64,000 bases of DNA from a virus (IMGVR_UViG_3300027712_000017), one strand, 5' to 3'. Positions 43,847-58,950 are shown, numbered from the stretch's first letter. Notes: generated from the sequence alone by a model not told the origin. Program-made: numbers and translations.

Positions 43847-43869
43847 TTGACATTTCTTAGGTCGATAAC
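43847..43869 (+). repeat. degenerate (6-nt deleted) copy of promoter cassette TTGACATTTCTTAGGTCGATAAC
   Basis: TTGACA and GATAAC present but spacer only 11 nt. Confidence 0.4.
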
Positions 43870-43898
43870 CCATTGAGAACCCACCAAAATTTTCGTGG

Positions 43899-43927
43899 TT
43901 GACATCTTTTTTGGAATATTCGATAAA
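43899..43927 (+). promoter_or_regulatory. cassette promoter copy 1 (TTGACATCTTTTTTGGAATATTC-GATAAA)
   Basis: member of repeated promoter-leader family. Confidence 0.55.
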
Positions 43928-43957
43928 CAAAGCATGGAAACGAAGGGAACGAAGAAA

Positions 43958-44206
43958 ATGGCAAAGTTTGATACCGCGACCGTGACCCGCTGGGCGAAAA
44001 TGGCAGAAATGTTTTTGCTGCGACTGGAGGGCGTCACCGGCACCACGAAGGACATCCATCTCGGTGTCGAGGCATGGACCATTGCTCACTTGTCGGGCAT
44101 CACCAGTGAGGCCTATGACGACCGGTCGGTCACGGACGCGCATATTAAAACCGCCCTCGAGAAAATCTTCCCCAATGCGAATTTCAAGGATCGCTACTCC
44201 TACTAG
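43958..44206 (+). CDS. hypothetical protein (82 aa), cassette gene
   Basis: GC-rich ORF; ATG after leader AACGAAGAAA. Confidence 0.5.
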   Translation: MAKFDTATVTRWAKMAEMFLLRLEGVTGTTKDIHLGVEAWTIAHLSGITSEAYDDRSVTDAHIKTALEKIFPNANFKDRYSY

Positions 44207-44210
44207 GGGT

Positions 44211-44239
44211 TGACATCTTTTCTATTTAATTCGATAACA
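44211..44239 (+). promoter_or_regulatory. cassette promoter copy 2
   Basis: TTGACATCTTTTCTATTTAATTCGATAAC. Confidence 0.55.
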
Positions 44240-44264
44240 CAATAGAAGAAACAGGGAGAACGCC

Positions 44265-44438
44265 ATGGATTACCAATCTGCTGAAGCAATTGCTATTCGT
44301 CTCGAAGGCATCCGCCGCCGTGCTGATCTGTTCGGTCAGGACCGTGACAGCGTGCTGAGCGAGATCGAGTTCCTCGCTCAGGACTTCCGCAAGTGGGCTG
44401 CGAAGATCGAGGAAGAGATGGTCGCACAAACCGCTTGA
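44265..44438 (+). CDS. hypothetical protein (57 aa), cassette gene; stop TGA inside next -35
   Basis: not in ORF track (<60 aa); SD GGGAGAACGCC-ATG. Confidence 0.45.
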   Translation: MDYQSAEAIAIRLEGIRRRADLFGQDRDSVLSEIEFLAQDFRKWAAKIEEEMVAQTA

Positions 44439-44463
44439 CATCTTTTCTGGAATATTCGATAAC
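44435..44463 (+). promoter_or_regulatory. cassette promoter copy 3
   Basis: TTGACATCTTTTCTGGAATATTCGATAAC. Confidence 0.55.
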
Positions 44464-44491
44464 ACAATAGTAGAAACGAAAAGGACACAAG

Positions 44492-44740
44492 ATGAACGGC
44501 TGGAAGAATCACGCGACCTGGAACATGAACCTGTGGTATGGCGATGTCTTCGCCGATCTCGCCGAGAATGGCATGGAGATCACCGGCGACTCGCTGCTTG
44601 AGTATGTCTATGACACCGAAGGGCTAAACGCTATGCCTGTGGGGTTCACCCGCGACGCCGCCATGCTGACCTTCAACTCGGTCGACTGGGACGAGATCGC
44701 ATCTCACTATGTCTTGCCCGAAGACGAAGAAGACGCTTGA
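44492..44740 (+). CDS. hypothetical acidic protein (82 aa), cassette gene
   Basis: SD AAAAGGACACAAG-ATG. Confidence 0.5.
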   Translation: MNGWKNHATWNMNLWYGDVFADLAENGMEITGDSLLEYVYDTEGLNAMPVGFTRDAAMLTFNSVDWDEIASHYVLPEDEEDA

Positions 44741-44746
44741 CATCTT

Positions 44747-44775
44747 TTCTCGAATATTCGATAACACAATAGAAA
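44747..44775 (+). promoter_or_regulatory. cassette promoter copy 4
   Basis: TTGACATCTTTTCTCGAATATTCGATAAC. Confidence 0.55.
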
Positions 44776-44795
44776 AAACGCGAAGGAGAAACGCG

Positions 44796-45125
44796 ATGGG
44801 TTTTGAAGATCTGATGTGGAAAGTGAGCGAAGCGGTCGAGGCCTTCTTGAGTGAAGCACGGGAGGTGTCCGCCTCGGAGCTTGGCCTCGACCAGCGTGCT
44901 GCATGGGGTAAAGTTTGCGTCACTCCCGAGTGCCTGGCAGTGCTTGCTGATAGCGAAGGCAGTCTCCGCTACTATGGCGGTTTCGAGTATGTTAGCAAGG
45001 AATACCGGGTTGGCATGGGCGAGTGGGTTTTCTACCTCGCCGAGGACGACCGTGTCCGCGAGCATCTTGCCCATGTCTTCCCTGAACTGCGCGATGGCGA
45101 GTGGGACGAAGAAGATGCCGCTTGA
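44796..45125 (+). CDS. hypothetical protein (109 aa), cassette gene
   Basis: SD GAAGGAGAAACGCG-ATG. Confidence 0.5.
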   Translation: MGFEDLMWKVSEAVEAFLSEAREVSASELGLDQRAAWGKVCVTPECLAVLADSEGSLRYYGGFEYVSKEYRVGMGEWVFYLAEDDRVREHLAHVFPELRDGEWDEEDAA

Positions 45126-45150
45126 CATCTTTTCTAGAATATTCGATAAC
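45122..45150 (+). promoter_or_regulatory. cassette promoter copy 5
   Basis: TTGACATCTTTTCTAGAATATTCGATAAC. Confidence 0.55.
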
Positions 45151-45180
45151 ACAATAGAAGAAACAAAAAGGAAGACACAG

Positions 45181-45375
45181 ATGTCCATGACTAAGCAAGA
45201 GCTGGTGACCGCCATCAGCAGCAACTTCTTCGGCGAGCGTGACACCCTGCAGGAGGCCTTCGACTATGCCTTCGCTGTCGCAAAAGCGACTGGGGATAAT
45301 GCCGCAGTGATCACCGCACTGATGGTCGTTGCCAACACCATCGCCAAGGAGATCAAAACCCTCGCCGATGCGTGA
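45181..45375 (+). CDS. hypothetical protein (64 aa), cassette gene
   Basis: SD AAAGGAAGACACAG-ATG. Confidence 0.5.
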   Translation: MSMTKQELVTAISSNFFGERDTLQEAFDYAFAVAKATGDNAAVITALMVVANTIAKEIKTLADA

Positions 45376-45379
45376 GGGG

Positions 45380-45408
45380 TTGACATCTTTTCGCTTTAAT
45401 TCGATAAC
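45380..45408 (+). promoter_or_regulatory. cassette promoter copy 6
   Basis: TTGACATCTTTTCGCTTTAATTCGATAAC. Confidence 0.55.
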
Positions 45409-45434
45409 ACAATAGAAGAAGAGGGAGATCGAAG

Positions 45435-45647
45435 ATAGCAGTCAAGTTTGTCGAAGGGTATAAAGACCCAGCATGGCCCGAAGTCAAAGAGGCGTTCTAT
45501 CGCAATTTCAACCCCGACGACTGGGATAGCATCACCATCGCCAAGACCCGTGCGACCGTGAAGCGTCACGCTGAGCAGCGTCTGGTGTGCGACTACGCTA
45601 TAAAGAAAGTAGGCGACGACTGGTGGGCTGTCAATTATCACTCTTGA
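45435..45647 (+). pseudogene. cassette ORF without an ATG start (ATA at the position where paralogous leader at 49148 has ATG); possible pseudogene or non-canonical start
   Basis: 70-codon open frame from TAA in -10 box to TGA in next -35; contains no Met codon. Confidence 0.35.
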
Positions 45648-45672
45648 CATCTTTTCTGGAATATTCGATAAC
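45644..45672 (+). promoter_or_regulatory. cassette promoter copy 7
   Basis: TTGACATCTTTTCTGGAATATTCGATAAC. Confidence 0.55.
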
Positions 45673-45701
45673 ACAATAGAAGAAACGGGAAGGAACCCAA
45701 C

Positions 45702-45914
45702 ATGACTGATCTGCACGCTAAAACCGCCGAATCTGTGACCGATGCCTTCTGCCAACTGCTGATCGCCAAGCACGGGCACGCCTATGCTGCGGGCTATATC
45801 TCCTCGCTGCTGCTGTCGCTTGTGTCATATACTTTGACCGGCGAACAGCAAGCAGAATTCGCCGCTGACATCTCGAAGCGCCTGTCCGATGAAGTTCGCA
45901 AGATGTCCGCCTAG
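45702..45914 (+). CDS. hypothetical protein (70 aa), cassette gene
   Basis: SD GGGAAGGAACCCAAC-ATG. Confidence 0.5.
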   Translation: MTDLHAKTAESVTDAFCQLLIAKHGHAYAAGYISSLLLSLVSYTLTGEQQAEFAADISKRLSDEVRKMSA

Positions 45915-45919
45915 GGTGG

Positions 45920-45948
45920 TTGACATCTTTTCTAGAATATTCGATAAC
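45920..45948 (+). promoter_or_regulatory. cassette promoter copy 8
   Basis: TTGACATCTTTTCTAGAATATTCGATAAC. Confidence 0.55.
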
Positions 45949-45969
45949 ACAAGAATGGAAACAAAGGAA

Positions 45970-46140
45970 ATGACCATGACACTCCACAAGATGCTTGCTA
46001 ACCTGATCGCTAATGCTGAAGCCGCTGCTGTCGCGGATGACCACGCTCGCCGTGAGGCCTGCGTTGCTGTTGCAGGCAAAGTGATGGATATGATCCACGC
46101 TGGCAATGGCAACCTGAAACTGGAGGTTGCCCATGTCTAA
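45970..46140 (+). CDS. hypothetical protein (56 aa), cassette gene
   Basis: SD AAAGGAA-ATGACC-ATG; stop overlaps next start (ATGTCTAA). Confidence 0.45.
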   Translation: MTMTLHKMLANLIANAEAAAVADDHARREACVAVAGKVMDMIHAGNGNLKLEVAHV

Positions 46141-46438
46141 TTATAGCGAAGGCGCGAATTGGAGTAATGAAGCGACCAAAATTGTAAATATCTGGTTTGA
46201 CGATCTTTTTGAGATGTGTGCTTTATACCCGATTGACGAAGAAACCGGCGAGATGGACGAGATAGATGCTGGATATTTCAAAGCTCTTGTCTGTGACTCC
46301 ATGGACTTTGATACCATAAACAATGGGTTTCTGATGGCTGTTGCTTATAAGGTTCTTGACCAGGTCAACTGGGAAGAGCTTGCAGCCTTTTGGGCTGGGG
46401 TTCAGGCCGCTGAACTTGTGCAGCAAAAAGCCGCTTGA
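46133..46438 (+). CDS. hypothetical acidic protein (101 aa), translationally coupled
   Basis: ATG within ATGTCTAA overlap; no separate promoter. Confidence 0.5.
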   Translation: MSNYSEGANWSNEATKIVNIWFDDLFEMCALYPIDEETGEMDEIDAGYFKALVCDSMDFDTINNGFLMAVAYKVLDQVNWEELAAFWAGVQAAELVQQKAA

Positions 46439-46463
46439 CATCTTTTCGCTTTAATTCGATAAC
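46435..46463 (+). promoter_or_regulatory. cassette promoter copy 9
   Basis: TTGACATCTTTTCGCTTTAATTCGATAAC. Confidence 0.55.
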
Positions 46464-46493
46464 ACAATAGAAGAAACAAAAAGGAAGACAAGA

Positions 46494-46880
46494 ATGGGTA
46501 CTCGCAGCATGATCGGCATGGTCGAAGCAGACAACTCGGTGTCGGCGATCTATTGCCATTGGGATGGTTATCTGTCGCATAACGGCGACCTCCTGGACAA
46601 GCACTATGACTCGGATGTCAAGGTCGCTGAATTGCTCGCCATGGGCGATCTGTCAACCCTCGGCGCGACCCTGCAAGAGCCCGACACTCGCGTGCTGAGC
46701 GGCGGCGCTGCTGCTGTGCGCTTCGAATCCATCGCCGCTTACCGCGAAGCCCTGGGGGAAAGCGGCGATCAGTTTCGCTACCTCTGGGATTCTGCAGCAT
46801 GGTTCTATATCGGCGGCGGTCGCACGGTCTGGGACGATGTCCGTGAGGGTCTGAAAGACGTCCGTGGCGTGACTGCCTAA
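46494..46880 (+). CDS. hypothetical protein (128 aa), cassette gene
   Basis: SD AAAGGAAGACAAGA-ATG. Confidence 0.55.
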   Translation: MGTRSMIGMVEADNSVSAIYCHWDGYLSHNGDLLDKHYDSDVKVAELLAMGDLSTLGATLQEPDTRVLSGGAAAVRFESIAAYREALGESGDQFRYLWDSAAWFYIGGGRTVWDDVREGLKDVRGVTA

Positions 46881-46886
46881 CGTCTT

Positions 46887-46940
46887 GAGAACGCAGCACA
46901 ATTCCGACCCAGGTGCTGCGTTCTCGATAAATTGTTTTTC
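46887..46940 (+). terminator. rho-independent terminator (13-bp stem GAGAACGCAGCAC/GTGCTGCGTTCTC, then TTGTTTTTC)
   Basis: perfect 13-bp inverted repeat read from sequence. Confidence 0.75.
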
Positions 46941-47049
46941 AGCATTGTCTATAGTTTTCAATAGTTTACACCAAAAACACTTTCAGTCGCGTCTTGTTCT
47001 TGTGCTATCATGCCTCGAACAAGGCGCTGCTGCGCGTCCACAAGGGTGG

Positions 47050-47078
47050 TTGACATCTTTTCCATTTAATTCGATAAC
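47050..47078 (+). promoter_or_regulatory. cassette promoter copy 10
   Basis: TTGACATCTTTTCCATTTAATTCGATAAC. Confidence 0.55.
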
Positions 47079-47107
47079 ACAATAGAAGAAACGGGAAGGA
47101 ACCCAAG

Positions 47108-47893
47108 ATGATCTATGACCTGTCGAAGTTGTCGGACGAAGTGCGCGCCCAGATCGAGGGCACCGCGAAGTATCGCAAACTGTTCAGCGAGAAGCCCAAG
47201 CGCCTGCTTGCTATTGATGGCAATGCCAAAACTGTCAAAGGCCGCGCTGCTGGGTTCATGACCGCTATCTTGTATCTTACACCTGCTTCGGCCTCGGGCG
47301 AGAACGTCTGTCCGATGGCAGCAATTGCTGCTTGCGATGAACCGTGCTTGAACACCGCTGGTCGTGGTGCGATGGGTTCGGTGCAATTGGCGCGTCTTCG
47401 TAAGACGCTGTTCTATATTCAATACCGCGAAGAATTCATGGCGCAGATCAAGAAAGAGATCGCTGCTGCCGTGCTCAAGATCAAGAAGAAGGGCTTCACG
47501 CCTTTGGTCCGCTTGAACGGCACGTCTGATCTGCGCTGGGAGAATTTCGGCATTCCCCAGGCATTCCCGGATGTCCAGTTTTACGACTACACCAAGATCC
47601 TGAACCGCAAGAACATCCCTGCCAATTATGACTTGACGTTCTCCTACTCGGGCGTTGCTGCTTTCAAGCCCTTTGCTATGAAGGCAATTGCTGCTGGTAT
47701 GCGCTTGGCGGTCGTGTTCCGTTCTCGCGCCGTGGTCGAAGGCATGCTTGCTGCTCAGGAGTCGTTCTTGGGGATGCCCGTGGTAGATGGTGACAATACA
47801 GACATCCGTCATATTGACCCGCAAGGCGCTGCTGTCGCGCTTTATGCCAAGGGCAAGGCAAAAACCGACCGCAGCGGGTTCGTGGTGGGTTGA
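47108..47893 (+). CDS. conserved hypothetical protein with Cys motif (CP...C...C), possibly GP88-family-like
   Basis: 261 aa; LAIDGNAKTVKG...LTPASASGENVCPMAAIAACDEPCLNTAGRG; family assignment from memory only. Confidence 0.55.
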   Translation: MIYDLSKLSDEVRAQIEGTAKYRKLFSEKPKRLLAIDGNAKTVKGRAAGFMTAILYLTPASASGENVCPMAAIAACDEPCLNTAGRGAMGSVQLARLRKTLFYIQYREEFMAQIKKEIAAAVLKIKKKGFTPLVRLNGTSDLRWENFGIPQAFPDVQFYDYTKILNRKNIPANYDLTFSYSGVAAFKPFAMKAIAAGMRLAVVFRSRAVVEGMLAAQESFLGMPVVDGDNTDIRHIDPQGAAVALYAKGKAKTDRSGFVVG

Positions 47894-47918
47894 CATCTTT
47901 TCCGTTTAATTCGATAAC
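47890..47918 (+). promoter_or_regulatory. cassette promoter copy 11
   Basis: TTGACATCTTTTCCGTTTAATTCGATAAC. Confidence 0.55.
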
Positions 47919-47947
47919 ACAATAGAAGAAACGCGAAGGGAAACAAG

Positions 47948-48127
47948 ATGATCGAATATGAATTTAGCGCCTACGGCAAGACCATGTGGATTTGGGTCGA
48001 TACGGTCGGTGAGGCGATGCACGAAGCAAACCTCGTGCTGATCTGGCCCGAGGAAGGCAAGCCCGGCGCCTGGTTCGAAACCACTGAGACGAAGTTCCGC
48101 TGGGTCGAAGGGAACTTCTCCGACTAA
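47948..48127 (+). CDS. hypothetical protein (59 aa), cassette gene
   Basis: not in track (<60 aa); SD GAAGGGAAACAAG-ATG. Confidence 0.45.
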   Translation: MIEYEFSAYGKTMWIWVDTVGEAMHEANLVLIWPEEGKPGAWFETTETKFRWVEGNFSD

Positions 48128-48134
48128 TCTGTGG

Positions 48135-48163
48135 TTGACATCTTTTCTAGAATATTCGATAAC
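48135..48163 (+). promoter_or_regulatory. cassette promoter copy 12
   Basis: TTGACATCTTTTCTAGAATATTCGATAAC. Confidence 0.55.
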
Positions 48164-48192
48164 ACAATAGTAGAAACAAAAAGGAAGACAAG

Positions 48193-49071
48193 ATGCCTCG
48201 TGGTGTTCCCGCTAACGGTTTTCGCATGACTAAGAACGCAGTTGTCCGCACTGGCGGCGCTGCCATCCTGGACAAGATCGTCCCCGTTGCTGCCGTGCAG
48301 CACGAAACTGACGCTGAGATTGACGCTCGTCTGCGTGACCGCTTCGAGATCATGGATACCCTGACCCAGGCAGCCCTGTTCGGTGATGCCCGCTCGGTAA
48401 TCATCTCGGGTCCTGCAGGTCTCGGCAAATCTTTTAACGTCGAGAAAGAATTGACCAACTGGGATCCTGACGCAATTAACCACACTATCGTCAAGGGCTT
48501 TTTGCGTACTACTGGTCTTTATAAGCTCTTGTTCCAATACCGTGAGCGTGGTCAGGTCATTGTTTTTGACGATGCTGACGCGATCTTTTATGACGATAAC
48601 TCGCTTAATTTGCTCAAGGCAGTATGTGATACTACCGATGTCCGCAAAGTTTCTTGGTTGGCAGAGACTAATATGGTTGACGAAGAGTCTGCCGTTAAAA
48701 TCCCTCGCCAATTCGAGTTCAATGGTACCATCGTTTTTATCACTAACCTCGACTTTGACTCGTTAATCGAGAAAGGTCATAAACTCGCTCCGCATCTTCA
48801 GGCGCTTGTTTCTCGCTCGCATTATATCGACTTGGCGATGAAAACCAAGCGCGACTATCTTGTGCGTATTAAGCAGGTAGTTGATGCGGGTATGTTAAAA
48901 GATCAAGGTCTCAATGCAGATCAAGAAAAGGCGGTCGTTGACTATATTACGACTAACCAGAACAAGTTGCGCGAATTGTCGCTCCGTATGGCTGTTAAAA
49001 TCGGCAACCTGGTTAAGATGAAAGCAGACTGGAAGCGTTTGGCAAATGTGACCTGCTGCAAGAATCAGTAA
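48193..49071 (+). CDS. AAA-family P-loop ATPase
   Basis: Walker A GPAGLGKS, Walker B VIVFDDAD, sensor-1 TIVFITN. Confidence 0.7.
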   Translation: MPRGVPANGFRMTKNAVVRTGGAAILDKIVPVAAVQHETDAEIDARLRDRFEIMDTLTQAALFGDARSVIISGPAGLGKSFNVEKELTNWDPDAINHTIVKGFLRTTGLYKLLFQYRERGQVIVFDDADAIFYDDNSLNLLKAVCDTTDVRKVSWLAETNMVDEESAVKIPRQFEFNGTIVFITNLDFDSLIEKGHKLAPHLQALVSRSHYIDLAMKTKRDYLVRIKQVVDAGMLKDQGLNADQEKAVVDYITTNQNKLRELSLRMAVKIGNLVKMKADWKRLANVTCCKNQ

Positions 49072-49078
49072 CGCAGGG

Positions 49079-49094
49079 GGCAGCAATGCCCCTT
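49079..49094 (+). other. hairpin GGGGCA-gcaa-TGCCCC immediately upstream of cassette promoter
   Basis: 6-bp GC stem, GNRA-like loop. Confidence 0.4.
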
Positions 49095-49121
49095 GACATC
49101 TTTTCCGGAATATTCGATAAC
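49093..49121 (+). promoter_or_regulatory. cassette promoter copy 13
   Basis: TTGACATCTTTTCCGGAATATTCGATAAC. Confidence 0.55.
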
Positions 49122-49147
49122 ATAATAGAAGAAGAGGGAGATCGAAG

Positions 49148-49318
49148 ATGTCTTATGTCTATGCTGTCACTATTAACGACCATGCTGTCCGTGTCTTCAC
49201 GCAGCGCGCAGACGCCGAGACGTTCATTGCTACTTGTGAAGACACGGACGACCGGACCTGCTGGAGCTATGATATTGAGAAGATCGAACTGGATGGCGAT
49301 CCCAGGGGGACGATTTAG
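49148..49318 (+). CDS. hypothetical protein (56 aa), cassette gene
   Basis: leader GAAGAGGGAGATCGAAG-ATG identical to leader of startless ORF at 45435. Confidence 0.45.
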   Translation: MSYVYAVTINDHAVRVFTQRADAETFIATCEDTDDRTCWSYDIEKIELDGDPRGTI

Positions 49319-49321
49319 GGC

Positions 49322-49350
49322 TTGACATCTTTTCCGTTTAATTCGATAAC
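49322..49350 (+). promoter_or_regulatory. cassette promoter copy 14
   Basis: TTGACATCTTTTCCGTTTAATTCGATAAC. Confidence 0.55.
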
Positions 49351-49380
49351 ACAATAGAAGAAACGCGAAGGAGAGACGCG

Positions 49381-49602
49381 ATGAAATACCAGGACCTGAC
49401 GCTCGACCAAATCCGCCATGCCATTCCGTTTATCGTTGCCAATGCGAAGGCAGCAGCACGCGCTGACGCCCTTGATCTAGCTGCTATGCTGCAGGATCGG
49501 GCTGAGTCAATGTGGGACGAATTGGTGCGGCGCATCCGCGCTGAGGACCCTCACACCACCGAGGCAGACATCCGTTATTTCGAAGGGATCCAACTATGCT
49601 AA
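49381..49602 (+). CDS. hypothetical protein (73 aa), last GC-rich cassette gene before AT-rich sub-island
   Basis: SD GAAGGAGAGACGCG-ATG. Confidence 0.5.
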   Translation: MKYQDLTLDQIRHAIPFIVANAKAAARADALDLAAMLQDRAESMWDELVRRIRAEDPHTTEADIRYFEGIQLC

Positions 49603-49823
49603 CTTACACTATCAAACTTAAAAGCGCAGAAGCTCTTATGGCATTGCGTGCTGAGAATGAAGCAATTATGGATTTGGAATCGTGTAAAACTCACGGCGAT
49701 AAAATCTATTCTAATGCTGTGCTGAATGAAGATAGTTATGCCTTTCCGGGTTCTTATTCAATCAGCGGTTTTATGTCGGGTCTGTTCTTGCCAGAAGAAA
49801 TTGAATGGGTAAAGGAGAACTAA
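49596..49823 (+). CDS. hypothetical protein (75 aa), AT-rich
   Basis: ORF overlapping upstream by 7 nt. Confidence 0.45.
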   Translation: MLTYTIKLKSAEALMALRAENEAIMDLESCKTHGDKIYSNAVLNEDSYAFPGSYSISGFMSGLFLPEEIEWVKEN

Positions 49824-49825
49824 AA

Positions 49826-50107
49826 ATGGCTAAGGCAACTGTTAAACTGAAAGAGATCAACCCTATTGAGTCGGTCACTATTACTATTAACCAATACGAA
49901 CTAGACACTCTTATGGTCATTCTAGCGCGAATTGGCGGATGTCCAGATAAATCCCCGCGAAAGCATTCTGCCAACATTTTAATGGCACTGCAACGAGCAA
50001 CTAAGGATATTCGTGGTCGATTTGAATTGTATGAAACTTCTGTATTGATTGACGATTCTGGCAAATATGCTGCCATCTATTTTAACGACTATCCCGAGGA
50101 GGAATAA
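49826..50107 (+). CDS. hypothetical protein (93 aa)
   Basis: SD AAGGAGAACTAAAA-ATG. Confidence 0.45.
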   Translation: MAKATVKLKEINPIESVTITINQYELDTLMVILARIGGCPDKSPRKHSANILMALQRATKDIRGRFELYETSVLIDDSGKYAAIYFNDYPEEE

Positions 50108-50108
50108 A

Positions 50109-51513: not shown

Positions 51514-51559
51514 TCCTCCCCCCGACCGAATCACTTTCCGATCAAATATCTATACTGCA

Positions 51560-51590
51560 ATTACTCGGAAATCTTGTCAACCATTATCTG
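51560..51590 (-). promoter_or_regulatory. inverted (minus-strand) copy of cassette promoter GGTTGACAAGATTTCCGAGTAATTG; no convincing ORF downstream
   Basis: reverse complement of tcggaaatcttgtcaacc; near-identical to minus-strand promoter at 51930. Confidence 0.45.
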
Positions 51591-51692: not shown

Positions 51693-51905
51693 TTAATCAA
51701 ACTCGACCCCGCCGCACTCGCTGACATAAAACTTACCGCGCTCGAAAAGATTTGCCGCATTCTGCGCGAACTGTTCCGTCTTGTAACAATGCCGATCCAT
51801 CACCGCGCCGTCCGCGAGAAAAGTGACCTCCCACGCCCAATCTTCGATCTTGCGACCATTCCGCTTGACTTCGCCCCACTCCTTCGACACCACCGCTTCG
51901 CGCAT
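51693..51905 (-). CDS. hypothetical protein (70 aa) on minus strand, driven by inverted cassette promoter
   Basis: minus-strand SD AAAGGAGATCGGG-ATG and promoter GGTTGACATATTTTCCGAGTAAATC-CATAAG at 51930..51960; GC-rich codon usage. Confidence 0.55.
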   Translation of the reverse strand: MREAVVSKEWGEVKRNGRKIEDWAWEVTFLADGAVMDRHCYKTEQFAQNAANLFERGKFYVSECGGVEFD

Positions 51906-51929
51906 CCCGATCTCCTTTTGCTACTATTC

Positions 51930-51960
51930 ACTTATGGATTTACTCGGAAAATATGTCAAC
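51930..51960 (-). promoter_or_regulatory. minus-strand cassette-type promoter for ORF 51693..51905
   Basis: reverse complement GGTTGACATATTTTCCGAGTAAATCCATAAG. Confidence 0.5.
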
Positions 51961-52009
51961 CACAGATTTCCGCCCCCTGCCCCCCACAAAATTTTGTTTT
52001 TTTCGTCAA

Positions 52010-52300
52010 TTAAACAATATTCGCAAAATAATGTCAACCCCCAAAAATGCCCAGAATTCCCCGAGGCCATGCCCCTATCGCGTCGACTATCGTCTGTGCG
52101 GTTTATGATACGTTTAAACAATATTCGCAAAATAATGTCAACCCCCAAACGACGCTGCGCTCCCCTTCGATAGCGGTCCATTCATGTTATCGCATTTATT
52201 CGAAATAATGTCAACCCCTCGCGTTGGCTGTTCGTAGCATGCGCTCGATGTAGTCTATTGTGGCTCGTGAGCGCATATATTATTTCGAAAATAATGTCAA
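52010..52300. repeat. four copies of TATTCG(C/A)AAA(A)TAATGTCAACCCC (reverse-complement promoter-like elements) in non-coding region
   Basis: copies near 52017, 52115, 52195, 52275; reverse complement reads GGGGTTGACATTATTTTGCGAATA. Confidence 0.55.
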
Positions 52301-52313: not shown

Positions 52314-52342
52314 TTGACATATTTTCGATTTAATTCGATAAC
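52314..52342 (+). promoter_or_regulatory. cassette promoter variant TTGACATATTTTCGATTTAATTCGATAAC
   Basis: family member. Confidence 0.55.
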
Positions 52343-52375
52343 GTATATTCGATAAAACGCGAAAAAGGATACGCG

Positions 52376-52636
52376 ATGAAATATGACATGAATGCGGACA
52401 CAGCGACGATTTTGATGCGCGGTTTGATTTACGCGATGGAAGATGAAGAAGCAACAGAATATGCGAAAGCAGAATTTCAAATCGAATGGTATCTGATCGG
52501 TGAGGCATTCGATTTGTTGGACGAAGATCAAATCGAAGAAATGGATTCTGTTATTGATGATATGCAACAAATCAAAGCAGAAATCGAATTTGAATTGGGG
52601 TATCAAAGATCGTCGATCACGATAAAAGAGGGTTGA
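52376..52636 (+). CDS. hypothetical acidic protein (86 aa)
   Basis: SD AAAAAGGATACGCG-ATG. Confidence 0.5.
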   Translation: MKYDMNADTATILMRGLIYAMEDEEATEYAKAEFQIEWYLIGEAFDLLDEDQIEEMDSVIDDMQQIKAEIEFELGYQRSSITIKEG

Positions 52637-52661
52637 CAACATTTTTGCAATAATGCATAAA
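52633..52661 (+). promoter_or_regulatory. weaker promoter variant TTGACAACATTTTTGCAATAATGCATAAA
   Basis: TTGACA + 17 + CATAAA. Confidence 0.35.
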
Positions 52662-52697
52662 TGTAAAATGACGAAAACGCGAATGAGGAGACATCGC

Positions 52698-52874
52698 ATG
52701 ACGTTCGAAATTATCAAAAAAGAAGTCAACGCAATTCAGAAGGATTGTTTTGATTTGACGATAATCAATCATGACACAAATGAAATTGTCGTGTTTGATT
52801 GCGTTAAAATCTGGGACGAAGATCAAGAATCATTAGAAGATATGTTTTATTATGACGAATCGTTAGACGCATAA
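52698..52874 (+). CDS. hypothetical acidic protein (58 aa)
   Basis: SD GAGGAGACATCGC-ATG. Confidence 0.45.
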   Translation: MTFEIIKKEVNAIQKDCFDLTIINHDTNEIVVFDCVKIWDEDQESLEDMFYYDESLDA

Positions 52875-52898
52875 TATCGCGTTTTACAATTCGTTAAA

Positions 52899-52933: not shown

Positions 52934-52987
52934 AATTCTTAAAAGATCGTGGCTGCGCCCTCGGGCTGGCTGCCAATCAGGACCCGG

Positions 52988-53016
52988 TTGACATCTTTTC
53001 CCGAATATTCGATAAG
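52988..53016 (+). promoter_or_regulatory. cassette promoter variant TTGACATCTTTTCCCGAATATTCGATAAG
   Basis: family member. Confidence 0.55.
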
Positions 53017-53051
53017 TGATCATGAAGAAACGCGATGAAGGAGATCACGCG

Positions 53052-53264
53052 ATGCAAGTCACGATCCGGTTCAAAGACTATGTCTCTATGAACGCCATGG
53101 CTGTTGTGGGCAGCATTCTGACCAACGAGGAGCTAGCTACCATGCACGGGCTGCGCGGTGGCTTCTGGTATACGACCGATGTCTCGCCGATGGTCGTGCT
53201 CGCTGCCTTCGAATCGGAGGGAATCGAGTATCAGGACTTCGAGTCGATCTCCTTCGAACCGTGA
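53052..53264 (+). CDS. hypothetical protein (70 aa)
   Basis: SD GAAGGAGATCACGCG-ATG; leader with GTGATC...GATCAC inverted repeat. Confidence 0.5.
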   Translation: MQVTIRFKDYVSMNAMAVVGSILTNEELATMHGLRGGFWYTTDVSPMVVLAAFESEGIEYQDFESISFEP

Positions 53265-53272
53265 GATCCTGG

Positions 53273-53301
53273 TTGACATATTTTCGATTTAATTCGATAA
53301 A
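53273..53301 (+). promoter_or_regulatory. cassette promoter variant TTGACATATTTTCGATTTAATTCGATAAA
   Basis: family member. Confidence 0.55.
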
Positions 53302-53313
53302 TGATCATGAAGT

Positions 53314-53333
53314 AGGGCGGAAGGGTTCCGCCT
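53314..53333 (+). other. conserved 5'-UTR hairpin GGGCGGAAGGGTTCCGCCTC (copy 1 of 2)
   Basis: identical apart from 1 nt to 57644..57663. Confidence 0.55.
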
Positions 53334-53357
53334 CAACGCGATGCAGGAGACCACGCG

Positions 53358-53525
53358 ATGCTGAAAGAGATGTCCAAGATGACCGCCAAGCAGATGGAGC
53401 TGGTCAAGTCCCTCACCCTCGCCGCTTACGCTGACGGCAAGATGAAGGCGTCCGAGAAAGACGCGATCTTCGCAACCATGAAGCAGGTGCTGATCGCTCG
53501 CATCCAGGCGAAAAAAGCCGCTTGA
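53358..53525 (+). CDS. hypothetical protein (55 aa)
   Basis: SD GCAGGAGACCACGCG-ATG; stop TGA in next -35. Confidence 0.45.
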   Translation: MLKEMSKMTAKQMELVKSLTLAAYADGKMKASEKDAIFATMKQVLIARIQAKKAA

Positions 53526-53550
53526 CATATTTTCGATTTAATTCGATAAC
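53522..53550 (+). promoter_or_regulatory. cassette promoter variant TTGACATATTTTCGATTTAATTCGATAAC
   Basis: family member. Confidence 0.55.
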
Positions 53551-53578
53551 ATAATAGTAGAAAAAGGGAGATGACAAG

Positions 53579-53710
53579 ATGATCACTGCTGAGATGATGA
53601 CTGGCTGGATGAACGAGGCTGTGGTCTCGCTGTTCGCCGCTGTGGATGGTATGACGGAAGACGACTACGTCATGACTCGCCTGGTTTCTTTCTCTGTTAA
53701 CGAGGTCTAA
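53579..53710 (+). CDS. hypothetical small protein (43 aa)
   Basis: SD AAAGGGAG; Met-rich N-terminus. Confidence 0.35.
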   Translation: MITAEMMTGWMNEAVVSLFAAVDGMTEDDYVMTRLVSFSVNEV

Positions 53711-53711
53711 G

Positions 53712-53879
53712 ATGGCTAAACGGTTCGTTCTCACTTCGTCCGCTCGGCTGGAAGCGCTGTCCTTCGAGACTGTCGCCGACGCTGAGGCCTTCTTGGCATC
53801 GCGGAAGATCTCGCAAGAGAACATCTGCCTCGCCGACAAGATCAAGGACGAGGTCATATTCATCCGCAACTATTATTGA
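53712..53879 (+). CDS. hypothetical protein (55 aa)
   Basis: ATG 1 nt after upstream TAA. Confidence 0.4.
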   Translation: MAKRFVLTSSARLEALSFETVADAEAFLASRKISQENICLADKIKDEVIFIRNYY

Positions 53880-53889
53880 GGAGACCCCT

Positions 53890-54000
53890 ATGAAATACCG
53901 CATCCGTGACTTCCTAGAAGATCTTGCCTCTGTGGTCATGCTGTTCGCTATGATCCCCCTATTCCCCTACGCCATCGCAATTGTAAAGGCTCTGATATGA
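53890..54000 (+). CDS. small hydrophobic peptide (36 aa)
   Basis: SD GAGGAGACCCCT-ATG. Confidence 0.3.
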   Translation: MKYRIRDFLEDLASVVMLFAMIPLFPYAIAIVKALI

Positions 54001-54242
54001 CCCCCTTCCTGAAAACCATCACTACCCATACCGTCCAAGAAGCCATTAACGAGCATGGTCCTATGCTCTGTCTGATGTCTGTGGTCCCGCAATTCCGCCT
54101 CGATGGCAAGGTTACCTCTATTGACTTGGTGATCGGTGCTGACTACACTAAACGCTGCGCTTCTGCTTTCAGTAAGAGGGGCGTGCTAGAACTCGCGGCG
54201 CTCCTGGCTGAGATCGGCGCTGCGATGGATGAACCCCAGTAA
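53997..54242 (+). CDS. hypothetical protein (81 aa)
   Basis: ATGA overlap. Confidence 0.45.
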   Translation: MTPFLKTITTHTVQEAINEHGPMLCLMSVVPQFRLDGKVTSIDLVIGADYTKRCASAFSKRGVLELAALLAEIGAAMDEPQ

Positions 54243-54269
54243 CCCTCCTATGCCCCCTGCGTCCTACTT

Positions 54270-54318
54270 GACCCGCGTAGCGCGCCTTCTCCTGGGCAGG
54301 CTGCGTGGGTCTTTTTTT
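54270..54318 (+). terminator. rho-independent terminator (GACCCGCGTAGC...GCTGCGTGGGTC + T7)
   Basis: imperfect 12-bp stem followed by TTTTTTT. Confidence 0.65.
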
Positions 54319-54341
54319 CGGACAGGAGGGCAAAATCCCTC

Positions 54342-54370
54342 TTGACAACATTTCGATTTAATTCGATAAA
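54342..54370 (+). promoter_or_regulatory. cassette promoter variant TTGACAACATTTCGATTTAATTCGATAAA
   Basis: family member. Confidence 0.5.
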
Positions 54371-54405
54371 TGATCATGAAGAAACGCGATGAAGGAGATC
54401 ACGCG

Positions 54406-54585
54406 ATGGCTAGCACTGTGGTGAGACTCAAGACGAAGATCGAGGTGGGCTCGGTCGTGGCGACGGCGTTCAAGCGCTCGCGCGCTGAGGTCCTCGGGTT
54501 CGTGGACGAAAAAACCATGACCGTCCGCTGGGAGGCATCGGGCGAAGTCGCCGATGTTCTTCGCGTCGCTTTTATTCTGGCTTAA
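54406..54585 (+). CDS. hypothetical protein (59 aa)
   Basis: same leader as 53052 gene (GATCATGAAGAAACGCGATGAAGGAGATCACGCG-ATG). Confidence 0.45.
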   Translation: MASTVVRLKTKIEVGSVVATAFKRSRAEVLGFVDEKTMTVRWEASGEVADVLRVAFILA

Positions 54586-54595
54586 GGAGACCGTT

Positions 54596-54760
54596 ATGGA
54601 AAAGATCGCCGCCCTTTTGAGTGATGACCGGTTTGAATCCAAGGACTGGAAACACGCCGACGCCGCAGGCCGTATTGAATGGCTGATCGCCATGCTTGAG
54701 CAAAAAACCAAAGAAGTAAATATGTGGGTTGATTTGATCAACGCCATCAAGGATAACTGA
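54596..54760 (+). CDS. hypothetical protein (54 aa)
   Basis: SD AAGGAGACCGTT-ATG. Confidence 0.4.
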   Translation: MEKIAALLSDDRFESKDWKHADAAGRIEWLIAMLEQKTKEVNMWVDLINAIKDN

Positions 54761-54761
54761 G

Positions 54762-54965
54762 ATGACCGGATGGGTTATGAAGACAGTGTTCGTGACAACG
54801 ACCCCCCTCGAGCATGGGAACTGGTCGGCTGTCGAATTTGAAACCGCTGAAGAGGCTTGGGCTTGGTGGGACGCCGTTGCGACCAGGTCAGTGCACCCCC
54901 GTCAGATGACCGTGGCTGATCCATCGGGGCGGGTTTGGGCTTCGCGGTTCGTGCCAGTAAAGTAG
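54762..54965 (+). CDS. hypothetical Trp-rich protein (67 aa)
   Basis: TGAGATG coupling. Confidence 0.45.
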   Translation: MTGWVMKTVFVTTTPLEHGNWSAVEFETAEEAWAWWDAVATRSVHPRQMTVADPSGRVWASRFVPVK

Positions 54966-56257: not shown

Positions 56258-56286
56258 TTGACAACATTTCCAAATAATTCTATAAC
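56258..56286 (+). promoter_or_regulatory. cassette promoter variant TTGACAACATTTCCAAATAATTCTATAAC
   Basis: family member. Confidence 0.5.
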
Positions 56287-56313
56287 TAAAAAGTAATTTG
56301 AAAGGAAACGACA

Positions 56314-56565
56314 ATGTATAAATTTCTCTTAGTGACCGGTTACCAGCTTTGGATGGTCCAGAAGAAGAACGACTTCACCGATCATGGTGGTGGCGAGCTT
56401 TACCACAAAGGTGAGCTAGTGGGCTATATGGAGGAGACCGACCGTGACGAGGACCGTATCTGGTACGACCACTTTGTCCGGGAAGATTTCTATCCTCACG
56501 AGATGGTGCAGGCGGAGAAAGAACGCCTCGAGAAACTATATAAAGGATTGAAGAAAAATGAGTGA
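56314..56565 (+). CDS. hypothetical protein (83 aa)
   Basis: SD GAAAGGAAACGACA-ATG. Confidence 0.5.
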   Translation: MYKFLLVTGYQLWMVQKKNDFTDHGGGELYHKGELVGYMEETDRDEDRIWYDHFVREDFYPHEMVQAEKERLEKLYKGLKKNE

Positions 56566-57250: not shown

Positions 57251-57438
57251 CTAAAGGTGATGTAGAAGTATTGGATATTGAAGATCAAGAGGATGGTAGC
57301 TCTATTATCACCTTCGACTTGTCGCAAGAAGCAACTAAGAGCATGGCGCAGTATGGGTTGAAGTTCGTGCTTTTCTGTGCCGCTTATGACGTAACCATTG
57401 ACGAAGGCTTTAACCGTATCGCAGGGAGAACAAAATAA
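57247..57438 (+). CDS. hypothetical acidic protein (63 aa)
   Basis: ATGA overlap. Confidence 0.45.
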   Translation: MTKGDVEVLDIEDQEDGSSIITFDLSQEATKSMAQYGLKFVLFCAAYDVTIDEGFNRIAGRTK

Positions 57439-57596
57439 TGATGACAGTAGCAATGCTCATTGAGCGTCTTAAGTCGTATCCGCAAGACGCTAAGATTATC
57501 ATTGATGCTCACAACTTCAACGTGGCGCATGATATGAAGCAACTCTACTGGTGTGAAGGTCGAGATGACAAAGATGAAGGTGTCTACTTCGAATAG
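57438..57596 (+). CDS. hypothetical small protein (52 aa)
   Basis: TAATG overlap; not in track. Confidence 0.35.
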   Translation: MMTVAMLIERLKSYPQDAKIIIDAHNFNVAHDMKQLYWCEGRDDKDEGVYFE

Positions 57597-57599
57597 CGG

Positions 57600-57628
57600 T
57601 TGACATCTTTTTTCATTAATTCTATAAA
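57600..57628 (+). promoter_or_regulatory. cassette promoter variant TTGACATCTTTTTTCATTAATTCTATAAA
   Basis: family member. Confidence 0.5.
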
Positions 57629-57643
57629 CAAAGAGTAATGAAA

Positions 57644-57663
57644 GGGCGGAGGGGTTCCGCCTC
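57644..57663 (+). other. conserved 5'-UTR hairpin GGGCGGAGGGGTTCCGCCTC (copy 2 of 2)
   Basis: matches 53314..53333. Confidence 0.55.
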
Positions 57664-57676
57664 GAAAGGAAACGAC

Positions 57677-57940
57677 ATGGCTGCGAATAACAACGGCAAA
57701 TCTGAGTTCAAAACTGAAAAACTGACTCGTGAAGATGTGATGGCTCGTTATGACGCACTTCCCAAGGAATATCGGGATGTGCTGAAAGATACAGTCATGA
57801 ACATAATCTGTTCTGATCCTAAAACTATCAAGCGCACTTTTCCCACGGCTCGTCACATGAAGTCGTGGGTTCGTCAAAAGGACCTTTTAGGTACTCGTGA
57901 TACCTATGGACGTCAACATCCGGCGGTATCTTACAAATAA
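57677..57940 (+). CDS. hypothetical protein (87 aa)
   Basis: SD AAAGGAAACGAC-ATG after UTR hairpin. Confidence 0.5.
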   Translation: MAANNNGKSEFKTEKLTREDVMARYDALPKEYRDVLKDTVMNIICSDPKTIKRTFPTARHMKSWVRQKDLLGTRDTYGRQHPAVSYK

Positions 57941-57949
57941 AGGTGTAAA

Positions 57950-58303
57950 ATGAAGCTAGATTTCCCCCTCGTAATCAACGAAGAACCACTTTCCGACGAT
58001 TTCTTACACTACCCAGGCAAGATGGCGAAGGTTGCTTACGAGGTTGCTCACTGGCAATGGCTCAGATGTCGCCTTTCCGAAGCGCAAAACTGGAAATGTT
58101 GCTGGTGTGGTGTAAAAACGACCGATCTCCGCAAGGTTCGGCACGCTTCTACTGTCGAGCATGTCCTACCAAAGTCACTGGGCGGCTCGAATGAGTGGGA
58201 AAATCTTGCTATGTCTTGTGAAAAGTGCAATAACGCCCGTGGAAACATGACGGCGGATGAGTTTATGGAAAAATTAACCGGCTCGTCCACGCCTTCAGCG
58301 TGA
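57950..58303 (+). CDS. HNH endonuclease
   Basis: CCWCG...HASTVEHVLPKSLGGSNEWENLAMSCEKCNNARGN (zinc-finger HNH motif). Confidence 0.8.
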   Translation: MKLDFPLVINEEPLSDDFLHYPGKMAKVAYEVAHWQWLRCRLSEAQNWKCCWCGVKTTDLRKVRHASTVEHVLPKSLGGSNEWENLAMSCEKCNNARGNMTADEFMEKLTGSSTPSA

Positions 58304-58343
58304 GTATGTAGTCCCAAATAAATAATCTCTTTAATGGAGGTAC

Positions 58344-58494
58344 TATGTCTTTAGTTGATGAACTTAAAGAATTGATAGAGAGAACAGGTTCTTATAACGA
58401 CCGCGATCTTCTTGTGCGTATTTTGTATGAAATGGAGAAAGAATCCAAAAATCACTGGGGTTCTGAGGAAATGTATTATAGGAACAGAAAATGA
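58344..58494 (+). CDS. hypothetical small protein (49 aa)
   Basis: SD ATGGAGGTACT-ATG. Confidence 0.35.
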
Positions 58495-58700
58495 CTTTAA
58501 AATGGATAGAGAACCCAAATCATAAACAGTTCGTTGCTGTGTCAGAATCACAACTTAACGGAACGTTCCGTGTCTTCTATGATGATGTGATGTATTGGCC
58601 TTCTTGGTCACCCGACTGCACACAGGACTTAGATGCTCTTAAACAAGAAGCGCAAGACATTCATGACCAATGGATTAGGCTTTCAACGCTGTCCAGTTAA
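58491..58700 (+). CDS. hypothetical protein (69 aa)
   Basis: ATGA overlap. Confidence 0.45.
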   Translation: MTLKWIENPNHKQFVAVSESQLNGTFRVFYDDVMYWPSWSPDCTQDLDALKQEAQDIHDQWIRLSTLSS

Positions 58701-58890
58701 CACAATACCAGTCTCTTGGTTCATAATCTTCAAACTTGAGTGCTAGGGTTCCTGATCCTAGCACTTTTTTTATTGATTGTTCACAAACTTCCTGATTTGA
58801 AAACATAGCATTAGGAGAAACAGTAAAGCATGATCCTATGTCTTTACCTTCAGTATGTAAAGCACACATTAGAATAAGAGCAGTAAACAT
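58675..58890 (-). CDS. small secreted/lipoprotein-like protein on minus strand (71 aa)
   Basis: minus-strand SD AAGGAA-CATTT-ATG; N-terminal signal-like MFTALILMCALHTEGK; a plus-strand terminator hairpin lies inside this ORF, so real status uncertain. Confidence 0.35.
   Translation of the reverse strand: MFTALILMCALHTEGKDIGSCFTVSPNAMFSNQEVCEQSIKKVLGSGTLALKFEDYEPRDWYCVNWTALKA
58740..58771 (+). terminator. rho-independent terminator GTGCTAGG...CCTAGCAC + T7
   Basis: 8-bp perfect stem followed by TTTTTTT. Confidence 0.7.
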
Positions 58891-58921
58891 GAAAATGTTC
58901 CTTAAAGAAAAGTATTTATGG

Positions 58922-58950
58922 TTGACATGTTTTTAGAATAATGTGATATT
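58922..58950 (+). promoter_or_regulatory. promoter TTGACATGTTTTTAGAATAATGTGATATT (cassette-related)
   Basis: TTGACATGTTTTT core. Confidence 0.45.

Follow-up and report, generated by a model that had tools for sequence, protein, structure and literature searches.

Bacteriophage T4 has about 40 strong sigma-70 early promoters with an extended conserved context, many of which lie before small early open reading frames (ORFs), for example nrdC.1-nrdC.11. The gene for NrdC.10 belongs to this early nrdC cluster, and codon use in T4 is known to be related to the time of expression. Promoter-early stem-loops (PeSLs), found in the T4-like phages RB49/phi1, PST/T4, and nt-1/KVP40, consist of a strong sigma-70-like early promoter and a stem-loop terminator (PMC2839356; PMC4122927). 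PeSLs are AT-rich upstream, bounded by stop and start codons, concentrated in hyperplastic regions, associated with insertions and deletions (indels), and able to form mini-circles (PMC2839356; PMC4122927). Here, we describe an array of comparable units in IMGVR_UViG_3300027712_000017, part of an uncultured T4-like phage of a lake metagenome (freshwater) lineage, of which one stretch of 64 kb, referred to as the window, was analyzed. Between positions 43847 and 58950 of the window, a promoter-plus-leader unit of 46-60 nucleotides (nt), called the cassette below, recurs before small ORFs. With a probability of roughly 0.7, we regard the cassettes as the early promoter-plus-leader units of a hyperplastic region that also supply modular shuffling with portable homology, in the manner of PeSLs.

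Anatomy of the Cassette

A scan of the window for TTGACA-N17-GATAAC with at most one mismatch returned 24 matches, compared with 100 shuffled controls that averaged 0.5 and never exceeded 4. An nhmmer profile of the 46-nt unit found 13 near-identical plus strand copies between 44210 and 49367 (E-values of 1e-12 to 3e-16), a further one at 53522 (6e-12), weaker ones at 43899, 52314, 52988, 53273, 54342, 56258, and 57600, and minus strand copies at 52214 and 51959. To these, reading the sequence added 52633 and 58922 on the plus strand, together with 43847, a degenerate copy whose spacer is 11 nt. A sequence-only reading of the window had put the number at about 24, and 24 plus strand copies are indeed present in 43847-58950, of which only 14-15 are near-identical. 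The tight family, as defined by the profile search of the window, is confined to 43.9-57.6 kb.

The alignment consensus is nnGCTTGACATCTTTTCTnGAATATTCGATAACACAATAGAAGAAAC..AAGGA..ATG, and the fuller alignment reads (CCGC or GTGG)TTGACATCTTTTC-N7-TTCGATAAC-ACAATAGAAGAAAC-(3-6 nt)-AAGGA(G/A)-(5-9 nt)-ATG. The -35 element is a perfect TTGACA, exactly 17 nt separate it from the -10 element nATAAn, and the ATG led by the Shine-Dalgarno (SD) sequence lies 55-59 nt after the start of the -35. The cassette is always on the strand of its gene. This anatomy agrees with the form that the sequence-only reading had proposed, namely a -35, a 17-nt spacer, a -10, and a leader. The N7 part of the spacer falls into two classes, xxGAATA and xxTTTAA, so the two spacer subtypes recognized earlier are also seen in the alignment. 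The stop codon of the upstream gene precedes the -35 by 0-12 nt or falls inside it. At least eight cases of the latter had been noticed; the TGA within TTGACA ends nine upstream ORFs, six with the exact form GCTTGACA: the eight marked in Table 1 that lie within 43847-58950 and ORF 59462-59665, which ends at the TGA of the -35 at 59662.

The palindrome GAATATTC is located in the spacer separating the -35 from the -10 in half of the copies and extends up to TCGAATATTCGA in P44737. The first 8-10 bases of the predicted transcript, (AT)GA(A/T)GAAAC, are common to leader types I-III, and the cassette alignment contains no consistent covariation of the spacer with leader variants. In type II and III leaders (43899, 45920, 52988, and 54342, and the loci L004, L010, L013, and L024), an ATG is found 5-9 nt past the -10, at the predicted transcript start. 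This ATG is in frame with and open to the SD-led ATG in 29 of 44 unique leaders, where it yields Lys/Arg-rich extensions such as MKKRDEGDHA. The early ATG hints at possible leaderless initiation; its frame is not conserved at orthologous genes. The spacer tract TCTTTTC was also considered as an anti-SD element of read-through RNA, through which only self-initiated transcripts would be translated. This candidate was rejected, as its effect is inconsistent across cassettes; mean SD accessibility is 0.48 for read-through RNA, rises to 0.53 when the promoter part is shuffled, and is 0.70 for the cassettes' own transcripts.

Exchange Among Cassettes and Gene Modules

Cassettes were grouped by the protein that they precede, across the window and relatives that are otherwise 85-97% identical. 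About 11 of the 24 orthologous groups switch either the spacer class, in which four of five bases differ, or the leader type (I, II, or III). The spacer of the nrdC.10-like gene, for example, is TAGAATA in the window, TTGAATA in the relative L020, and CGTTTAA in L007, and the gene has a type II leader in L024; at the 52988 gene, the leader is of type III in the window and of type I in L017. Both spacer classes are found with every one of the four SD variants that recur in the window. In sequence terms, this constitutes a four-gamete incompatibility that multi-base convergence cannot explain. The combination of SD variants with both spacer classes and the switched variants at orthologous genes therefore indicates that cassettes recombine with each other. 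Most of these switches lie within ~60 nt of unique sequence on both sides, which makes assembly errors an unlikely source. Mosaic cassettes are stronger evidence than the enrichment of structural breakpoints described below.

Other uncultured T4-like lineages, found in IMG/VR through the NrdC.10 protein, have uniform TTGACA cassettes of their own around the nrdC.10-like gene, with 7-15 copies per 10-19 kb (L036, TTGACATTTAATCC; L065, TTGACATTTTTCC..TAGACT; L090, TTGACATTAATT; L096, TTGACATTTCGAAATGATTGTGCTATAAT). Cassettes that are homogeneous within a lineage and divergent between lineages carry the signature of concerted evolution.

The cassette pattern had 0 matches in 185,579 species genomes and was present in 3 IMG/VR viral contigs and 20 JGI metagenome contigs. 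The backbone identity to the window is 95-97% for L003/L021 and ~73% for L002/L024. As the sequence-only reading had predicted, comparison of the gene content between cassette boundaries in these relatives shows modules that are inserted, deleted, and reordered, and the junctions lie within cassettes. The P45122-P45380 module is missing in L021, and an extra 220-nt module is present at P44210 in L021 and L011, which come from different samples. An extra 257-nt module is found at P49093 in L007, the 44796 gene is joined straight to the nrdC.10 cassette in L020, and the P53273 module is missing in L013. L004 and L010 share insertions of 208 nt at 53521|53522 and 431 nt at 53312|53345, L014 has a 509-nt gene at the P57600 position, and L005 and L021 are without the low-GC, cassette-less gene 46133-46438. 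In L002/L024, shared modules occur in permuted order. Over 40-64 nt, each junction cassette of L020, L013, and L021 can be aligned to two separate cassettes of the window.

The association of breakpoints with cassettes was measured in ~20 related metagenome contigs, using the unique end-points in two cassette-dense stretches and a cassette zone of -15 to +75 relative to the start of the -35. The zone contains 23 of the 31 end-points of structural differences, compared with 23% expected (p = 3e-9). Gene-content breakpoints are thus associated with the motif, and cassette sub-segments are also swapped at orthologous genes. At the level of sequence, the comparison with relatives shows both exchange among cassettes and modular gain, loss, and reordering.

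Proposed Mechanism

Host RNA polymerase with its primary sigma factor would bind the -35 TTGACA, the 17-nt spacer, and the -10 (G/C/T)ATAA(C/A), and transcription would start ~6-7 nt past the -10. The messenger RNA leader of 20-25 nt, which is purine-rich (..GAAGAAAC..AAGGAG), would set the SD 6-9 nt before the ATG. We infer promoter function, early timing, and the enzyme involved from the anatomy. The cassette would make up the whole intergenic region, often supplying the stop codon of the preceding gene. Transcripts are probably nested because few terminators are present in the array (the hairpin at 46887-46925 and the hairpin overlapping the P49093 -35). The near-identity over 46-60 nt would offer portable homology to the phage recombination machinery, for which UvsX is encoded. 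Crossover or gene conversion between cassettes could delete, insert, replace, or reorder ORF modules, and the same exchange would keep the cassettes of one lineage alike. The same mechanism has been proposed for the PeSLs of T4-like phages (PMC2839356; PMC4122927).

Promoter Classes and the -10 Element

The window and its close relatives together yield 101 unique cassettes, of which 53 have C at position -7, 42 have A, 4 have G, and 2 have T. In the window, T at -7 is found in 0 of 24 array cassettes compared with 11 of 24 TTGACA sites elsewhere. The backbone promoters are canonical TTGACA-N16/17-TATAAT and are located at the polymerase (5024) and primase (23231) genes, and also at 41616 and 60714. 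Some loose backbone promoters (35204 and 59662) share the TTGACAT.TTT..CGATAAA form with the cassettes, and T at -7 is mostly retained where more distant lineages have cassettes of their own. Promoters without -7T are typical of Alphaproteobacteria, and -7T is present in 90-99% of the promoters of other bacteria (PMC7703639; PMC8407463). By analogy, a -10 without -7T fits the alpha-type transfer-messenger RNA (tmRNA) of the phage. The occurrence of both promoter classes in one phage leads us to conjecture separate regulation rather than simple host constraint, and a dependence of the cassettes on CarD is likewise conjectural.

A broader proposal can be put forward tentatively, with its parts taken together. 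The phage may use two host-polymerase promoter classes, TATAAT for the replication backbone and a homogenized -7T-less class for a GC-rich, host-codon-adapted array of ORFans. The second class may be a dedicated immediate-early system that perhaps requires CarD or a factor of the phage, with host transfer RNAs (tRNAs) translating its genes before phage tRNAs accumulate. The units may also be a recombination substrate, with the array as a gene-capture platform shared by co-infecting phages.

Genes Behind the Cassettes, Codon Use, and Phage Context

The sequence-only reading had described the genes as mostly 50-130 amino acids (aa) long, acidic, and without recognizable domains, a description that holds. 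Cassette-driven ORFs have a median length of 70 aa and an isoelectric point (pI) of 5.0, and a convincing Pfam/PHROG family match was obtained for only 3 of ~20 tested: GP88 (PF17338), the NrdC.10-like phrog_1250, and phrog_1987. The GP88-family gene is nearest to those of Limnohabitans and alphaproteobacterial podophages. DUF7249 and DUF6525 appear among the array proteins as sub-threshold matches, PDB sequence searches of two array proteins gave no match, and an Rfam scan of the array gave no known RNA family at gathering scores. An all-against-all BLASTP search of 49 array proteins found a single weak pair with 28% identity, formed by 44492-44740, which is GC-rich and has a cassette, and 46133-46438, which has a GC content of 0.45 and is without a cassette. 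Near-identical cassettes consequently flank unrelated genes, and this search rules out tandem gene duplication. The first codon of the ORF at 45435-45647, after P45380, is ATA, compared with ATG in the close relative L003/L021; the difference may reflect loss of the start codon, a non-canonical start, or a sequencing error. The sole nuclease found among the array ORFs scanned is an HNH endonuclease (PF14279/PF01844) at 57950-58303; it is located inside the variable region, and a 174-nt insertion of L014 lies directly before it (57940|57942).

Cassette genes have a GC content of 0.48-0.60 and a third-position GC content (GC3) of 0.54-0.82, compared with ~0.38 and 0.21-0.42 for backbone genes. 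The window contains 12-13 tRNA genes, located at 32-4035 and 29668-36155, and the phage tRNAs decode TTA, CTA, TTG, AGA, ACA, GGA, and GTA. When the genes within 43958-54965 are compared with backbone genes, TTA, CTA, AGA, GGA, ACA, and GTA account for 1-4% of their codon families in the array and 14-39% in the backbone; TTG is the exception, with 18% and 31%. The rise in GC is also present in L024, L021, and L014, and in 13 of 13 further lineages checked (loci L025-L100, ~10001-10900), the nrdC.10-like gene surpasses the median GC3 of the remaining large ORFs, by 0.03-0.37. This evidence favors, in compositional terms, a maintained property of the gene class, with host-like codons and expression before phage tRNAs accumulate, over recent import. 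The host-like codons of the cassette genes fit expression at the very start of infection.

The T4-like core genes span 5-42 kb of the window. The family B DNA polymerase has its best matches, at the protein level, in cyanomyovirus gp43 (52% identity), and UvsX (7865-8935), a DnaB/gp41-type helicase, a primase (gp61), both ribonucleotide reductase subunits, PhoH, and exonucleases are also encoded. When the array and 20 kb of backbone were compared by megablast with 50,697 GenBank phages, no nucleotide-level relative emerged; similarity exists only at the protein level. The array is located downstream of the replication module, directly after the terminator-like hairpin at 43801-43826, and by analogy its position and content, including the NrdC.10 homolog, match the "hyperplastic region" of the T4 literature. 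A permuted two-piece tmRNA at 63533-63882 (Rfam RF01849 alpha_tmRNA, 115.8 bits) carries the tag ANENFAPVAYALAA. An alphaproteobacterial host is plausible because this tmRNA is of the alpha type; a degenerate search for the tag gave 0 matches among 185,579 species genomes. A promoter-like TTGACA is present at 63537, within the tmRNA region.

Alternative Explanations

Several observations weigh against reading the cassettes as early promoters that also mediate shuffling. An E. coli-type promoter scan detected none of them because it requires T at -7, and with an E. coli-type polymerase the cassettes would be poor promoters. The relatives are metagenome assemblies in which repeats of 46-60 nt can misjoin, and some of the differences in order could be artifacts; this objection does not apply to the indels shared by independent samples or to those spacer switches that have unique flanking sequence inside a single read length. 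The breakpoint enrichment, taken alone, is confounded because every gene of the dense array has a cassette and every intergenic region is one, so that any gene-sized indel is cassette-flanked and enrichment is expected anyway. Gene-sized indels also occur at promoter-less boundaries, as in L004, which is without 49598-49811, and in L014, with inserts at 55555 and 57940. The last two points, and the presence of uniform early promoters in many other T4-like lineages, would suit ordinary early promoters that are alike through selection for strength and have no causal part in shuffling, with indels adding or removing whole genes. We consider this unlikely, since selection for strength fails to explain the identity of the spacer and of the leader up to the ATG, the multi-base flips of spacer or leader at the same gene in near-identical relatives, and the four-gamete pattern of spacer class and SD variant. 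The junction cassettes that match two window cassettes also argue against it.

The array and its GATAA(C/A) promoters could instead be a block acquired horizontally from a GC-richer phage, in which case the composition would reflect foreign origin and not early expression. The overall GC content of the array, 0.52 compared with 0.38 for the backbone, the different class of the backbone promoters, the affinity of the GP88-family gene, and the interleaved low-GC genes without cassettes are in line with such a transfer. It is nevertheless improbable, as the same architecture in L002/L024 must be old at ~73% identity, the vertically conserved nrdC.10-like gene has the high GC3 described above in all 13 lineages, and the cassettes themselves are AT-rich and resemble the backbone promoters at 35204 and 59662; a foreign origin of part of the array is possible. 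Even less probable is that the spacer and leader are sites for a regulator, either a protein of the phage or the host or a factor that binds RNA, which switches the whole array and whose constraint keeps the units identical. The palindrome, the shared first transcribed bases, and the difference from the TATAAT class, which suggests separate control, would agree with a regulator, but the TTTAA spacer class is without the palindrome and yet serves the same genes in relatives, and the spacer-SD pairing test in read-through RNA was negative. A regulator would also be compatible with cassette shuffling rather than exclusive of it. Duplication in tandem of one gene and its promoter followed by divergence, or an assembly artifact, is scarcely credible. 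The one weak paralogous pair speaks for duplication, but all other array ORFs are unrelated, independent contigs of different samples repeat the same junctions, and composition and cassettes interleave with backbone-like genes.

Features of the Region

The coordinates of the cassettes and associated features are collected in Table 1.

Table 1. Cassettes, promoter-like sites, and hairpins in and around the array (window coordinates).
Feature	Position	Strand	Evidence
Two-way terminator-like hairpin closing the low-GC backbone block	43801..43826	.	scan
Degenerate cassette, TTGACA + 11-nt spacer + GATAAC, just past terminator, probably non-functional	43847..43869	+	read; missed by 17-nt searches
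P43899, -10 GATAAA, type II leader CAAAGCATGGAAAC, before ORF 43958-44206	43899..43960	+	scan, profile E 3e-6, alignment
Array of 15 mutually unrelated small cassette-driven ORFs, GC 0.48-0.60, GC3 0.54-0.77	43958..49602	+	BLASTP, composition
P44210, type I leader, TTTAA spacer class, before 57-aa ORF	44210..44267	+	scan, profile E 3e-15, alignment
P44435, upstream stop in -35, before 82-aa ORF	44435..44494	+	scan, profile, alignment
P44737, upstream stop in -35, before 109-aa ORF	44737..44798	+	scan, profile, alignment
P45122, upstream stop in -35, before 64-aa ORF; entire module missing in L021	45122..45183	+	scan, profile, alignment
P45380, before ORF 45435-45647	45380..45437	+	read, alignment
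P45644, upstream stop in -35, before 70-aa ORF	45644..45704	+	scan, profile, alignment
P45920, leader variant ACAAGAATGGAAAC, before 54-56-aa ORF	45920..45978	+	scan, profile, alignment
P46435, upstream stop in -35, before 128-aa ORF (phrog_1987)	46435..46496	+	scan, profile, alignment
13-bp perfect hairpin after ORF 46494-46880, candidate terminator inside array	46887..46925	+	-26.8 kcal/mol, z -4.6
P47050, before 261-aa GP88-family ORF	47050..47110	+	scan, profile, alignment
P47890, upstream stop in -35, before 59-aa ORF	47890..47950	+	scan, profile, alignment
P48135, before 292-aa T4 NrdC.10-like AAA protein	48135..48195	+	scan, profile, alignment
P49093, before 56-aa ORF; hairpin 49074-49095 overlaps -35	49093..49150	+	scan, profile, folding
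P49322, before 73-aa ORF, last of tight array	49322..49383	+	scan, profile, alignment
TTGACA promoter-like site, poor -10, then ~200 nt without ORF	51548..51580	-	read
Cassette, -10 CATAAG, type I-like leader, before 70-aa ORF 51905-51693	51903..51959	-	profile, read
Two copies of GGGGGTTGACATTATTTTGCGAATATTGTTTAA, 104 nt apart, neither followed by an ORF	52009..52141	-	read
Cassette TTGACATTATTTCGAATAAATGCGATAAC	52186..52214	-	scan, profile
P52314, looser, divergent from minus strand promoters	52314..52378	+	scan, profile E 6e-6
P52633, looser, -10 CATAAA, upstream stop in -35	52633..52700	+	read
P52988, -10 GATAAG, type III leader TGATCATGAAGAAAC	52988..53054	+	scan, profile E 1e-7
P53273, type III leader, leader hairpin GGCGGAAGGGTTCCGCC at 53316-53332; two extra gene modules here in relatives	53273..53360	+	scan, profile
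P53522, near type I, upstream stop in -35	53522..53581	+	scan, profile E 6e-12
P54342, type III leader, heads promoter-less operon of small GC-rich ORFs to ~56.2 kb	54342..54408	+	scan, profile
P56258, looser, -10 TATAAC	56258..56316	+	scan, profile
P57600, looser, -10 TATAAA, second leader-hairpin copy 57645-57661	57600..57679	+	profile
Generic promoter TTGACA-N17-GATATT	58922..58977	+	read
Two generic promoters of the same general type (59406, 59662), beyond 43847-58950	59406..59729	+	scan

Two inverted copies had been placed at 51560 and 51930; both minus strand sites exist, with their true starts at 51580 and 51959. Three more minus strand TTGACA sites are found at 52214, 52141, and 52037, the last two of which are identical 33-nt units. 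The GC-rich minus strand block at 51300-52250 thus contains several TTGACA promoter-like sites without ORFs, which may represent small RNAs or decayed cassettes. The non-coding ~200 nt after the site at 51580 ends in a terminator-like hairpin at 51389-51372. On the plus strand, the otherwise gap-free array is interrupted by a 170-nt non-coding gap at 46881-47049, which opens with the 13-bp hairpin and is 94% conserved in L007. The leaders of P53273 and P57600 hold the same GC-rich hairpin, GGCGGA(A/G)GGGTTCCGCC; at both positions, there are relatives without the hairpin and with one or two whole genes (431 nt in L004/L010 and 509 nt in L014).

Implications

Promoter-cassette shuffling has been described from a few cultured T4-like pairs, and the present array extends it to an uncultured freshwater lineage. 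The natural population data show exchange of sub-segments, which is more direct evidence of within-unit recombination than pairwise genome comparison. About two dozen ORFans that are probably early are marked out by the cassette; they are candidates for a part in host takeover or counter-defense and can be found without culture. About 100 natural variants of a strong -35 with a -7T-less -10, located beside canonical promoters, form a compact test case for alphaproteobacterial-type polymerases. Codon use divides cassette genes from the tRNA-supported backbone with unusual sharpness, and this division bears on why phages carry tRNAs. The value of the finding lies in the population-level cassette exchange, the -7T-less class beside canonical promoters, and this sharp codon partition.

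Comparison with Known Systems

The likenesses to T4 early promoters, integrons, and mycobacteriophage stoperators considered here are drawn from general knowledge. The array resembles T4 early promoters in its strong consensus -35, 17-nt spacing, and small early ORF clusters with a nrdC.10 homolog, and the use of host polymerase is presumed. T4 differs in having a TATAAT-like -10, -7T, and A/T-rich upstream sequence; here, the canonical class is found only before backbone genes. The -10 without T at -7 is shared with alphaproteobacterial sigma-70 promoters (PMC7703639; PMC8407463), although those are host promoters and the cassettes are putative phage promoters.

Integron gene cassettes likewise combine unrelated small promoter-proximal ORFs with a recombination-prone repeat between them and a content that varies between close relatives. 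In the array, there is no integrase and no attC-type fold, the repeat itself is the promoter, and recombination is presumably homologous. An integron-like site-specific system was rejected, with no integrase among the array ORFs scanned (Pfam/PHROG) and no attC-like fold in the repeats. Mycobacteriophage stoperators and start-associated sequences are also short conserved repeats at gene ends or starts in the tight intergenic regions of phage genomes. Unlike the cassettes, they are 13-14-bp protein-binding or translation-associated sites and not complete promoters, and they have no link to module exchange.

PeSLs are the closest counterpart. In both cases, the phage is T4-like, and the unit reaches from the upstream stop codon through a sigma-70-type -35/N17/-10 and the SD to the start codon. 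The units cluster in a hyperplastic region before ORFans, have a lineage-specific consensus, and are tied to ORF insertion, deletion, replacement, and displacement between close relatives. Most cassettes here differ in being without an integral GC-rich stem-loop, and a few have a hairpin beside the -35 or in the leader. Folding of -35 to +60 of 21 cassettes gave z-scores mostly between -1 and +1, with hairpins only at P49093 (49074-95), P45380, P47890, P52314, P54342, and P57600 and none at the cassettes 44210-45122, 45644-47050, 48135, and 49322. The cassettes are also without an AT-rich tract upstream of the -35, where a GC-rich ORF has its 3' end; relative to the -35, 76% of cassettes have G at position -2, and 98% have G or C at position -1. 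Their -10 reads GATAA(C/A), 2 of 101 cassettes have T at -7, and their identity runs through the leader. The PeSL analogy drawn in the sequence-only reading accordingly stands for the promoter, the stop and start bounds, the hyperplastic location, and the association with indels, and fails for the stem-loop and the AT-rich upstream sequence. On this comparison, the unit appears to work like a PeSL and is best viewed as a stem-loop-less variant of known cassette shuffling rather than a new kind of system.

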